Source: Bacteroides uniformis (GTDB lineage: Bacteria; Spirochaetota; Spirochaetia; Sphaerochaetales; Sphaerochaetaceae). Taken from it: DNA of 40,537 bases. The translations under genes and the position numbers were made by a program. How positions within the stretch are numbered: the first letter of the stretch is position 1; the number at the start of each line of letters is the position of its first letter. The stretch lies in assembly GCA_963618365.1 (NCBI GenBank), contig CAVESN010000001.1, forward strand, positions 9,892 through 50,428, written 5' to 3'. The notes beneath the pieces were generated by a model. It had not been told where the DNA came from. It was given only the letters and a program-made list of their open reading frames with translations, and did not search any database. Below are positions 19,090-40,382 of this stretch, piece after piece.

Positions 19090-19698
19090 TTAGAACCTAC
19101 GAATCGGCCGTACAAGATACTGACTATCGCGGCTTTGTGGCCCACTGTCCAAGCCATTAACTACTCTCTTTATTGCATATGCTGTATCGGTAACAGCTTC
19201 AGTGTTATAATCATAGACTTCAGAGCTTGTCCAGTAGTATGTATTTAATTCAAAAGAGTCTGCCAAGTCAGTGTTATACATAAGAGTTAAAAGCTCTTCT
19301 TTGCTTGGAAGGAACCAGTCTGTACATCCGTTTTCGTAGAGATCTTTATTATATACTTTATAGGCTGCCTCGTACTTTTCACCCATCTCGAAAAGTTTTT
19401 TAGTATTGTCAAGGCCACCTCCAATACTAGTTACAGTTTTGCAGTCTTCTGCTTCTTTCTCTCCCCAAGCGCAATTTACAGAAGCACCACCAAGATTACT
19501 TGCATAATCGGTTTTCGCAGCCTCAAGGTATGTCCATCCATCGGTTGAAGCTTTTGGGTTAACGTAGAAAATGGTTCCACCGGCAGGACCAGGGTCGCCA
19601 ACTTTGTAGGTGGTTGACTTGGTTTCGCTATCGTCGCACGATACAATGAGCATTGCAGAAAGCAATACCATCATCAGAACAGTAAGAGTTTTCTTCAT
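19090..19698 (-). CDS. DUF1566 (Lcl C-terminal-like) surface lipoprotein
   Basis: The ATG at 19698 opens MKKTLTVLMMVLLSAMLIVSC|DDSE, a canonical lipoprotein signal. The motifs GGTIFYV, DWFLPSKEELLTLMYN, YYWTSSE and VRPIRRF fit the DUF1566 pattern. The gene is visibly more AT-rich than its flanking genes. Confidence 0.8.
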   Translation of the reverse strand: MKKTLTVLMMVLLSAMLIVSCDDSETKSTTYKVGDPGPAGGTIFYVNPKASTDGWTYLEAAKTDYASNLGGASVNCAWGEKEAEDCKTVTSIGGGLDNTKKLFEMGEKYEAAYKVYNKDLYENGCTDWFLPSKEELLTLMYNTDLADSFELNTYYWTSSEVYDYNTEAVTDTAYAIKRVVNGLDSGPQSRDSQYLVRPIRRF

Positions 19699-19740: not shown

Positions 19741-19770
19741 AGTATACCCCCCCCCGTGTATCTTGTGCAA
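19741..19770 (-). promoter_or_regulatory. Predicted sigma70-type promoter of the DUF1566 lipoprotein gene with a poly-G spacer
   Basis: The minus strand reads TTGCAC (19770-19765), then the 18-nt spacer aagatacacGGGGGGGGG, then TATACT (19746-19741). About 36 nt further on come AAGGA and the ATG at 19698. Confidence 0.5.
19747..19755 (-). repeat. Homopolymeric G9 tract (C9 on the + strand)
   Basis: Counted directly: four C at 19747-19750 plus five C at 19751-19755. Confidence 0.95.
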
Positions 19771-36927: not shown

Positions 36928-37650
36928 TTACTCGCCAATTTTCATTTCCCCATCCCTACACTTGATGGTCACTCCTTGTATACCCAACGCGCTACCATAG
37001 CCCGAAGCTGAATTGAAATCTTCCTTTGTTCCACCATAGTGGATTGTCTTTAGACTAGCACAACCACTGAACGCACCTCTACCAATATTTTTTATGCCCT
37101 GCGGGAGATAGACAGTCGTTTTAGCCAAACCTGCAAAACCAGACGCCTTGATTTCTGTTACAGTAGCGTTTGCGTTACCTGCTGTTTTGGCAGGTATATA
37201 AAGTGTGCTGTCGCTTGATGCAGAAGAAAGCGACACAACAAGTTGATTAGTGTAACCGTCAACATAATCATACGTTAGACTGTCTGGGACAGACACCCAA
37301 ATAGCATTAAAAGTTGTGTCCTCTGTTATTGTTTCAGTGAAATCAAACGCTTTGCTACTTTCTGCTTTTCCCCACCCGATGAATGCGTAATCATTCCGAG
37401 TCGGATCTTCCGCAAGTCTTGTAGCCGTCTCTCCCTCATTGACAGTCTGAGAATCTAATTCGGTATCCCTATCCTTGAATATAACTGTATACGATATTGG
37501 GGAACTCGGAGTCGAGGGATTCGAGGTCGACGAACTCGAGTCGTCGCAGGCAACGAAAAGTGCCGCAATCGTGAAAACAAAAGAGATTACGCAAAGACGC
37601 TTAATCTGAGAGGGATACCCCCCCCCCGTACGGTTATTTCTGTATTCCAT
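36928..37650 (-). CDS. Surface lipoprotein with a Listeria-Bacteroides repeat (Flg_new) domain and BspA-type LRR C-terminus
   Basis: The lipobox is ALFVAC|DDSSS. YTVIFKDRD...NDYAFIGWGK...FDFTETITEDTTFNAIW matches the List-Bact repeat. IKNIGRGAFSGCASLKTIHYGGTKEDF matches the BspA-like LRR_5 ending. The start is one of ATG 37650, 37665 or 37674, all upstream of the G10 tract. The gene is AT-rich relative to the window. Confidence 0.75.
   Translation of the reverse strand: MEYRNNRTGGGYPSQIKRLCVISFVFTIAALFVACDDSSSSTSNPSTPSSPISYTVIFKDRDTELDSQTVNEGETATRLAEDPTRNDYAFIGWGKAESSKAFDFTETITEDTTFNAIWVSVPDSLTYDYVDGYTNQLVVSLSSASSDSTLYIPAKTAGNANATVTEIKASGFAGLAKTTVYLPQGIKNIGRGAFSGCASLKTIHYGGTKEDFNSASGYGSALGIQGVTIKCRDGEMKIGE
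37618..37627 (-). repeat. Homopolymeric G10 tract (C10 on the + strand) inside the lipoprotein ORF
   Basis: Counted directly: three C at 37618-37620 plus seven C at 37621-37627. The tract is read as acG GGG GGG GGG (T-G-G-G). Confidence 0.95.
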
Positions 37651-37895
37651 ATACTTCTCTTTCATACATTGCATTGGCTACAGTTGCATTTTGTTGTCCA
37701 TCCGATCTCTTTACGCCCCTACAAGGACAAGCCTCGGATATCCATCTGCTCCCTGCCCTGCACAACCAATCGATTACGTTCCTATGACCGCACCATCGCC
37801 ATGCTAGAGCAGAAAGTCTACCGGGAAATCAACAAAAACCAACTCTAGGCAAACCATTGGGGCGTGTCAAGAACGCACCCAACTCCCATCTCCTT

Positions 37896-38156
37896 TCACA
37901 TGTGCTGATCCGGTATTCTCCAAACTCCTCCCCTCCTCGCTCCTTCCCGGCAAACCAGGCCACGAGCCTGCAGGGAAACAGTGATCCTTTGCACTTTGGA
38001 TCGGGAATAACCCGTCCGCCTGATCATCTCCGACTGGCTGATTTGAGAATTCAGTCGGATCATCTCCAAGATTGCACGCTCATCCTGTGTTTTAGCTTCA
38101 ACACGATAAAACATCCGTGAGTCGATGTTGTTTCGCAGAACAAGATGAACTAATAA
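37896..38156 (-). pseudogene. 5'-truncated remnant of a gene encoding a C-terminal MarR-like wHTH tail of the kind found on AlbA_2/HATPase_c_4 proteins
   Basis: The product ...DERAILEMIRLNSQISQSEMIRRTGYSRSKVQRITVSLQARGLVCREGARRGGVWRI is a wHTH. The reading frame stays open upstream of the listed ATG as far as the ISL3 terminus at 38157. Confidence 0.5.
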
Positions 38157-38497: not shown

Positions 38498-38591
38498 ATG
38501 CTATGATTTAAGATAAAAATTTGTCCGCTTCAGAGCGACCAACTACTTTACTTCATCAACACTTAGTTGTATGATTTCCTCAGAGGTTACA

Positions 38592-40382
38592 ATGTACGTT
38601 TCATTGACGGGGCCAAAGGGTTACGAGCAGGTAGTAATAAAGGAATCAATCAGGATTCCGGGAACGAAGGACAAGAAAAAGGAATACATCATCGAAAGGC
38701 ATGGAAGGCTGAAGGACTGCCTTGAAAAGGATCCTGACTACATAGCCCATCTGAGAGAGAAGCTCAAGAAGGAGAAGGATGAGGCGGCAAAGGACAAGAC
38801 CATCACGATTACAGTCAGGCCCAAGGAGATAAGCGGCTCATCGGACCAGAGAGCATCCTTCCATTTCGGGCATATGATAGTCAGCAGGCTCTGGGATGTG
38901 ATGAAGCTTGATGCGTTCTTCGATAAGAACGTGAATGCCAGGAATGAGGATCATGTGATTGAAGGCATATACAATCTTCTTGCAGCAAGGCTGGGAAGCC
39001 CTGCAAGCATACTGAGCATCTCGAAGGGGCAGAAGAAGAATGCCGGGATGAAGGTCATATCCCTTGATGTCCTGTATTCCGTGCTTGATGTTCTTGATGA
39101 CTCCAGGGAGGATCTGATCAGGCATCTGTCAAAGTTCTTTGCGAAGAACACGAAGAGGGATCTGAAGACAGTTAGCTATGATGTCACCAACTACTATTTC
39201 GAGAGCCAGAAATCAGGGGAGCTGAGATTATTCGGATACAGCAAGGAGAATAAGCATAATGAGGTGATTGTCGTAATGGGGCTTCTGATAGACAGCAATG
39301 GCATACCTGTGACAATGCGCATATTCCCAGGAAACACAATGGATCAGAATACACTGCAGGACTCAATAGATGATCTGAAGAATCTGTATGGCTTTGAGAG
39401 CATAACAGTGATAGCAGACAGAGGCATGAACAGCAAGGAGAATCTTGTATTCCTATCTTCCAGCAGCCAGCATTTCCTCATCAGCTACACATTGAAGAAA
39501 GCATCCGGGCAGATAAGGAACTCATGTCTTGCGGGTGACTGGCAGGAGATGGAGACGAATGATGACGGAGTGATTGTATATGCATCGAAGATTCTCGATG
39601 CGAAGGTGTCCGCAAAGATGGCGCTTACAGAAGGGGAGATTGAGAAGATGAAGGCAGAAAGGAGGGAAAAAGGAACAAAAGGCAGGATGCCGAAGTACAA
39701 GACAGTTGAGGTTGATGCAAAGCTTCATGTCTCATACAGCCGGAAAAGAGCGGAGAAGGACTATTACGATAGGCAGAGGGCTATAGAGAAAGCAAGGAAG
39801 AAGATTGAGAGCGGAAGCGCATCCCAGGCTATCAGACATGGCGTGAACAAATACCTTGAATTCAATGAGGATCTGAAAGTGACGGGCATCGATGAGGAGA
39901 AGATAAAGGAAGAGGCAAAATGGGATGGCTATTATGCTGTCATCACAGATAATGCAGACCTTACGAGCGAAAAGGTATTCGATCTATATAAGACACAATG
40001 GAAAATCGAGGAATGCTTCCGCATACTGAAGACCGATCTGAATGCACGTCCTGTATATGTCCATAATGACAAGCACATATATGGGCATTTCGTTCTCTGC
40101 TATCTTGCCTTATGCATGATACGCTATCTTCAGTACAAGCTGAAAAGCGAGCACAAGATCGAAATGAGTGCTTCAAGGATCATGGCATGCATAGCAGAGC
40201 CTATAGCGGTAGTCACAGGAGAGCCGCCCAAGGTCATCATAACGCCCACTCATCTTGATGATGACTTCATTGCGGTAATCGACAAGCTTGGATTCAGGAA
40301 GCTTGAGACGGAAATGACTCCGACAAGATTCAGGGCTGTGACCAAGCTTGACCTGAAAGACCAGTTGGAACAGCTTATTTAA
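38592..40382 (+). CDS. IS1634-like (IS4 superfamily) DDE transposase
   Basis: It contains VSYDVTNYYFES (D1 region), ITVIADRGMNSKENL (D2) and YKTQWKIEECFRILK, which fits Y(2)[R/Q](3)E(6)K. The start ATG at 38592 lies 5 nt after GAGG. The track's 38571 start is an alternative. Confidence 0.9.
   Translation: MYVSLTGPKGYEQVVIKESIRIPGTKDKKKEYIIERHGRLKDCLEKDPDYIAHLREKLKKEKDEAAKDKTITITVRPKEISGSSDQRASFHFGHMIVSRLWDVMKLDAFFDKNVNARNEDHVIEGIYNLLAARLGSPASILSISKGQKKNAGMKVISLDVLYSVLDVLDDSREDLIRHLSKFFAKNTKRDLKTVSYDVTNYYFESQKSGELRLFGYSKENKHNEVIVVMGLLIDSNGIPVTMRIFPGNTMDQNTLQDSIDDLKNLYGFESITVIADRGMNSKENLVFLSSSSQHFLISYTLKKASGQIRNSCLAGDWQEMETNDDGVIVYASKILDAKVSAKMALTEGEIEKMKAERREKGTKGRMPKYKTVEVDAKLHVSYSRKRAEKDYYDRQRAIEKARKKIESGSASQAIRHGVNKYLEFNEDLKVTGIDEEKIKEEAKWDGYYAVITDNADLTSEKVFDLYKTQWKIEECFRILKTDLNARPVYVHNDKHIYGHFVLCYLALCMIRYLQYKLKSEHKIEMSASRIMACIAEPIAVVTGEPPKVIITPTHLDDDFIAVIDKLGFRKLETEMTPTRFRAVTKLDLKDQLEQLI

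Follow-up and report, generated by a model that had tools for sequence, protein, structure and literature searches.

This locus raises the question of whether a run of ten G, located near the 5' end of a small lipoprotein gene, can turn this gene on and off. Slipped-strand translational phase variation had been proposed in a first-pass annotation, and we followed it up in the whole stretch of DNA (40,537 bases, hereafter the window, with a G+C content of 52%) and in homologous loci. In our assessment, the G10 run is quite probably a simple-sequence contingency switch in the coding region, which would result in ON/OFF phase variation of the lipoprotein. The features of the locus, the alleles of one homologue and the related promoters are collected in Table 1.

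Table 1. Features of the window around the G10 run, promoters of the relatives of the second-tract gene, and alleles of the homologous tract.
Locus	Feature	Position	Strand	Remarks
Window	G10 homopolymer, ACG GGG GGG GGG, codons 8-11 from ATG 37650	37618..37627	-	proposed slipped-strand switch element; homologous G9/G8 tracts in L001, L002, L017, L018, L019
Window	TAA stop, G8 and G11 frame	37601..37603	-	simulated alleles
Window	TAA stop, G9 and G12 frame	37587..37589	-	simulated alleles
Window	lipoprotein CDS, 240 aa from ATG 37650	36928..37650	-	Flg_new (Listeria-Bacteroides repeat) domain and BspA-type LRR region; Pfam and homologues
Window	signal peptide coding region	37546..37650	-	MEYRNNRTGGGYPSQIKR (n-region holding the tract), LCVISFVFTIAALFV (hydrophobic core), lipobox FVAC, then DD
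Window	most likely start codon, ATG	37648..37650	-	homologous to the ATG of both relatives (alignment A1); further in-frame ATGs at 37665 and 37674
Window	weak Shine-Dalgarno-like AAAGAGAAG	37654..37662	-	homologous to AAGGAGAAG in L002
Window	near-cognate ATT, conserved	37603..37605	-	candidate alternative start, directly before KR and the hydrophobic core
Window	sigma70-like promoter, TTGACA-17-TAGAGT	37842..37870	-	about 190-200 nt upstream of the ATG; conserved in alignment A1
L011	promoter TTGACA - 18 nt including G9 - TATAAT			12/12 matches
L026	promoter TTGACA - 16 nt including G8 - TATAAC			
L012 and L013	promoter TTGACA - 18 or 19 nt - TATACT			G9 vs G10 is the sole difference in 1600 nt
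L020-L025	same cassette			no G run
L002	homologous tract, G9			Logan ERR10754012; ON
L019	homologous tract, G9			ERZ15610578; ON
L017	homologous tract, G8			ERZ15610560, 106-kb contig, 10x coverage; OFF
L018	homologous tract, G8			ERZ15609774, 850-nt contig, 1.4x coverage; OFF

The run was recovered by a sequence check where the annotation had placed it, in the 5' coding region of the Listeria-Bacteroides repeat/LRR lipoprotein, as C10 on the forward strand and thus G10 on the minus (coding) strand. Only two runs of G or C of at least nine bases are present in the window, each located at the 5' end of a lipoprotein gene, with the G on the gene strand. From base composition, about 0.1 runs of at least ten bases are expected in the window (0.074 for C and 0.025 for G).

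The tract is contained in an open reading frame of 248 aa at 36928-37674 on the minus strand. All three in-frame ATGs (37674, 37665 and 37650) are located upstream of the tract, and no in-frame ATG, GTG or TTG is found between the tract and the hydrophobic core, both as the first-pass annotation had stated. The first canonical in-frame start past the tract is a GTG at codon 127 (37296); the near-cognate ATT had been omitted from that annotation.

Simulated alleles also agree with its claim that G10 leaves the frame open and that G9 and G11 truncate the product before the signal peptide. The frame is open with G7, G10 and G13. With G9 and G12 it ends in ...GGGIPLRLSVFA, the G9 product reading ...TGGGIPLRLSVFA, and with G8 and G11 it ends in ...GGVSLSD* and ...TGGGVSLSD*, respectively. 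These four alleles stop after 15-21 codons, ahead of the hydrophobic core and lipobox. A homopolymer of at least about 8-9 bases therefore lies within the reading frame if ATG 37650 is the start in use, as homology, the Shine-Dalgarno-like sequence and the conservation of the frame suggest. A one-unit change leads to a frameshift and a premature stop that no canonical downstream restart rescues, with the near-cognate ATT at 37605 as a candidate start.

In terms of codon usage, GGG makes up 21% of the glycine codons in the long reading frames of the window, and the probability of three GGG codons, given three glycines, is about 0.009. Elsewhere in the window gene, GGG is used at three further glycines that one or both relatives also have, and none of these is encoded by GGG in the relatives. 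This improbable choice at the tract, together with the lack of GGG in the relatives at the other conserved glycines, points to selection on the homopolymer itself, beyond the peptide that it encodes.

As for RNA structure, the G run can pair locally with the following CCCUCUC, yet the fold is no better than that of shuffled sequences (z between -0.5 and +0.2), and this candidate was rejected. Rfam gave no match at gathering thresholds anywhere in the window, and none within 37500-38000 at E <=1.

The product carries a Pfam Flg_new domain (PF09479, 42 bits against a cut-off of 27) and a BspA-type LRR_5 match (PF13306) that, at 26 bits, is slightly under its cut-off of 27.7. Both families are present in the precomputed annotation of the identical protein and of its two close homologues (P0001-P0003). 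Signal peptidase II lipoprotein features are present when the rule is applied by eye, in the order MEYRNNRTGGGYPSQIKR-LCVISFVFTIAALFV-A-C35. This rule (PROSITE PS51257) consists of a positive n-region, a hydrophobic core and a lipobox cysteine within about 35 residues of the start. The lipobox cysteine is Cys35 when counted from ATG 37650 (37546-37548), and both this residue and the motif FVACDD are invariant in the N-terminal alignment of the three family members (A2). The product is probably a surface-exposed, adhesin-like lipoprotein with Flg_new and BspA-type LRR regions, judging from its sequence. An AlphaFold2 model built from three sequences had a mean pLDDT of 51 and was too poor to use.

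When 5.8 billion proteins were searched, the window protein had a single identical entry (P0001), and its close homologues were limited to P0002 (49% identity, 250 aa) and P0003 (47%, 239 aa). The N-termini of the two homologues read MKH(K/R)NSTGGGY..QIK...FVACDDD. In the corresponding DNA, L001 for P0002 and L002 for P0003, there is a G9 at the equivalent position, in frame as GGG GGG GGG and coding for T-GGG-Y. All three known family members thus keep the tract, its upstream ATG and the reading frame, with 47-49% protein identity between the window protein and the other two.

The alignment of the three loci (A1) shows how the frame is kept. In each locus a threonine codon precedes the run (window, ACG; L001, ACC; L002, ACA), and the window has one extra codon (a 3-nt indel) when compared with the relatives. 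The interval from the ATG to the TAT is composed of 20 nt plus G10 in the window and of 18 nt plus G9 in the relatives, and both totals are multiples of three. The synonymous threonine codons, the 3-nt indel, the kept frame and an AGGAG at the ATG of the relatives are signs that the tract region is coding.

ATG 37650 is most likely the start in use, as judged from these alignments. In L001 and L002, AGGAG is found 5 nt before the homologous ATG, with a dG of -7.3 and -8.9 kcal/mol, respectively, against a generic anti-Shine-Dalgarno; the corresponding AAAGAGAAG of the window reaches -2.9 kcal/mol. At the site equivalent to the promoter of the window, both relatives have TTGACA-17-TAAAGT.

A leader of about 110-195 nt separates the conserved promoter from the ATG (37651-37841 on the minus strand of the window, 2516-2624 in L001 and 2807-3000 in L002). 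Within this leader, blocks such as CGTAATCG are conserved and an indel of 77 nt is present, and no Rfam match was found. Further upstream, a 72-aa MarR-type winged-helix reading frame (37896-38114, minus strand) ends 26 nt before the -35 element of the promoter, and neither L001 nor L002 has a counterpart there. This reading frame could code for a local regulator or represent a gene fragment beside an IS element. An IS1634-family transposase gene (38571-40382, plus strand, NCBIfam 341 bits) is located about 450 nt past this small reading frame, and the exact transposase protein is absent from the public protein collection. Among plasmids, tblastn matches to this transposase were limited to unrelated taxa, at 32% identity or below.

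All known family members come from metagenome-derived assemblies. The relatives have a G+C content of 37-40%, compared with 52% in the window. Going by the lipoprotein types and the sigma70 and Shine-Dalgarno signals, a treponeme or another spirochaete would be a guess for the source. The window gene is possibly a paralogue of the L002-family gene, since its locus is not syntenic with that family.

Wider searches added no further members. The profile of the three N-termini (A2) had no match in the 5.8-billion-protein set, and the search of 1.84 billion representatives with the full-length profile (A3) was dominated by giant multi-repeat proteins, with end-to-end matches only to P0001 and P0003. 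The exact window protein is not in the contig index, with P0001 being present in the protein collection. A pattern of the tract and its downstream flank found nothing beyond the L001 contig among genome contigs. Among JGI metagenome contigs it found seven unrelated contigs, all sharing a GGGGGGTACCCCCC element. Those catalogued as L005-L010 hold an unrelated conserved non-coding element around this palindrome, a chance match of the degenerate pattern. The contig of L001 and L003 (CAVDPO010000091.1, 4126 nt) is assigned to a metagenome bin of Segatella copri. It is probably misbinned, because its TTGACA-17-TAAAGT promoter and AGGAG site are atypical of Bacteroidota.

Natural variation in tract length was found in the species of one homologue (P0003/L002), for which four independent consensus assemblies from four samples are compared. 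The 90% cluster of P0003 includes P0141, a protein of 197 aa starting at Met43, just past the signal peptide, and the full-length P0142. In the G9 assemblies (L002 and L019) the full 239-aa lipoprotein is called. In the G8 assemblies (L017 and L018) the gene can be called only from the internal Met43, giving 197 aa without a signal peptide.

L002 and L017 show one difference in 3531 aligned bases, which is the single G of the tract. L002 and L019 differ by seven substitutions, with G9 in both, and L017 and L018 are identical across 850 nt. The neighbours in common are P-II, an RlmI-like methyltransferase and Pta, followed by the lipoprotein gene, with L018 (850 nt) too short to show them. A cation-efflux gene comes after the lipoprotein gene in L017 and L019, where the sequence extends that far.

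The first-pass annotation had suggested comparing the locus in other isolates and had named two outcomes that would speak against its proposal, the use of a downstream non-canonical start (weighed below) and the absence of length polymorphism in any population or strain. On the latter point the comparison, run on the homologue, found the opposite, with G9 and G8 in two assemblies each. These alleles, along with the conservation of tract, ATG and frame, lend support to slipped-strand translational phase variation. It is in a related species, at the tract homologous to that of the window, that near-identical genomes differ in tract length; the window organism is represented by a single assembly. 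P0001 forms a single-member cluster, and no 122-aa call of the OFF type appeared in the protein search.

The second run of the window, a G9 on the minus strand at 19747-19755, is located 46 nt upstream of ATG 19698. The gene concerned (19090-19698, minus strand) codes for an unrelated lipoprotein, MKKTLTVLMMVLLSAMLIVSCDD..., with a DUF1566/Lcl_C domain (P0021). This run lies between TTGCAC and TATACT, with a spacer of 18, and the 5' cassette, which comprises promoter, leader and signal peptide, recurs in relatives of the gene. A position between -35 and -10 applies to the run at 19747-19755 and to L011, L012 and L026, and not to the 37618-37627 tract.

The 19747-19755 run thus looks like a case of promoter-spacer phase variation. 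Since L012 and L013 differ by G9/G10 alone, the comparison shows that such G runs change length in this bacterial group, where they are used repeatedly at lipoprotein genes. In L021, a DUF1566 lipoprotein gene (601-1206) has a Flg_new and LRR_5 gene (1225-1806) 18 nt downstream of it, and therefore both G-tract lipoprotein types of the window are adjacent elsewhere.

In the mechanism that we propose, transcription would start from the conserved sigma70-type promoter about 190 nt upstream (with the first base predicted near 37835, about 7 nt past TAGAGT), and translation would proceed from ATG 37650 through the Thr-Gly-Gly-Gly tract into the signal peptide with lipobox FVAC. Slipped-strand mispairing at replication would add or remove one G. 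Lengths other than 7, 10 or 13 would then shift the frame, and translation would end ahead of the signal peptide, within 15-21 codons, as in the simulated alleles. With no canonical restart before codon 127, no exported lipoprotein would be made in the OFF state. The G10 of the present assembly would correspond to ON, and the expected outcome is a reversible and heritable mixture of ON and OFF cells for a probably surface-exposed, adhesin-like lipoprotein.

Three other explanations were weighed against this one. The tract could be part of the 5' untranslated region, with translation starting at the near-cognate ATT 37605, the G run taking the role of a Shine-Dalgarno sequence and the upstream ATG opening only a short leader ORF, so that tract length would tune translation through spacing or uORF overlap. 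None of the three family members departs from this ATT, and in each it leads into K-R/H, a hydrophobic core and the lipobox, which together form a canonical short signal peptide. The G run has a dG of -11.5 against a generic anti-Shine-Dalgarno and ends 10-12 nt before the ATT in the three members, a spacing that is, however, above the optimum. The window has a weak Shine-Dalgarno ahead of ATG 37650, whereas a good AGGAG precedes the ATG of L001 and L002. The TAA of the G8/G11 frame overlaps ATT-AAG. On the other hand, the interval from ATG to ATT is in frame in the window, L001, L002 and L019, and the changes within it are a 3-nt indel and the synonymous ACG/ACC/ACA. ATT is also a very inefficient initiator in the bacteria studied, and overall we regard a start at this codon as unlikely. 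A position of the tract within a promoter spacer, sense or antisense, where its length would control transcription and not translation, seems extremely improbable. Related lipoprotein genes do carry G8-G10 between TTGACA and TATAAT/TATACT, and TAT also comes next after the tract studied here. However, no -35-like hexamer is found 16-19 nt upstream of TATCCC/TATTCC, both hexamers lack the invariant final T, and promoter scans of the window, L001 and L002 found no sense-strand sigma70-like hexamers flanking the tract in any of the three loci. An antisense site, TTGAAA (L002) or TTGAGA (L001)-17-TACTAT, does span the tract (L002 3014-3042, L001 2638-2666, minus strand), but it matches at 9/12, no more than shuffled sequence gives, and the window equivalent CTGAGA-17-TACGGT fails the criteria. 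Moreover, a conserved promoter is already found about 200 nt upstream.

The remaining explanation takes the run as a conserved Gly-Gly-Gly of the signal peptide n-region without any switching, the G8 alleles being homopolymer assembly errors or one-way pseudogenisation. In its favour, the window organism is known from a single assembly, L018 has a coverage of 1.4x and all three species-level consensus sequences are ON. The difference between G8 and G9 could be an assembly error, but L017 has 10x coverage and each length occurs in two independent samples, four in all, which come from one study and pipeline as well as from Logan. Against plain glycines there is also the lack of any other difference between L002 and L017 over 3.5 kb, the low probability of three GGG codons (about 0.009) and the variation of promoter-spacer G tracts between otherwise identical contigs. 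We find this explanation highly improbable.

A broader version of the coding-region switch would treat the G8-G10 run and the TAT as one contingency module of this uncultured group, placed in two positions at lipoprotein genes, the promoter spacer and the coding n-region of the signal peptide. The coding G run may then double as a Shine-Dalgarno for the conserved AUU, so that out-of-frame alleles would keep a low basal level of lipoprotein and the switch would be graded and not binary. We consider this idea quite unlikely.

With the coding-region switch as the preferred reading, a previously undescribed family of small Flg_new/BspA-LRR lipoproteins joins the genes predicted to switch by homopolymer slippage. 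The tract is kept across deep divergence (47-49% protein identity), and alleles of both the ON and the OFF type are present in nature. Coding-type and promoter-type G switches would occur together on lipoprotein genes of one genome. The conserved tract, the ON/OFF alleles and the promoter-spacer tracts on neighbouring lipoprotein genes suggest that these bacteria may vary their surface stochastically, as known pathogens do. Furthermore, genes assembled with an OFF tract, such as the one coding for P0141, are easily mis-annotated as truncated genes or pseudogenes.

In terms of known systems, variable G runs of 7-12 are found at the putative outer-surface protein genes TP0126, tprE/G/J and tprL of Treponema pallidum, and the run of TP0126, placed between -35 and -10, acts through spacer length (PMC7864442). 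The window tract at 19747-19755 and the relatives L011, L012, L013 and L026 are similar to TP0126. Unlike these promoter tracts, the G10 tract is inside a reading frame, about 200 nt downstream of a conserved promoter.

Surface-structure genes of Campylobacter jejuni and Helicobacter pylori are controlled by G/C homopolymers, of which each genome has several, both within genes and in promoters. The lengths of these tracts are also reported to differ between otherwise identical isolates (Moxon et al. 2006, cited in PMC8049484). The loci described here resemble these poly-G/C contingency genes for surface structures. In contrast with these phasomes, which are experimental and genome-wide, we describe two tracts in one 40-kb window and a few metagenomic relatives.

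Lastly, the tract of Neisseria pilC is reportedly located in the signal-peptide-coding region, while the tract described here falls in the extended n-region of a lipoprotein (SPase II type) signal peptide. Both are G/C runs of at least nine bases inside the frame of a surface-associated adhesion protein (a putative one in the window), where a frameshift by one G would switch the product ON or OFF. The product here is a Flg_new/BspA-LRR lipoprotein of another organism, and its switching is deduced from sequence. In pilC, the G tract is genic and ranges from 9 to 20 (PMC5953494). Translational phase variation by slipped-strand frameshift is an already known kind of switch, and for the lipoprotein gene of the window such a pilC-like assignment is well supported by the sequence comparisons.
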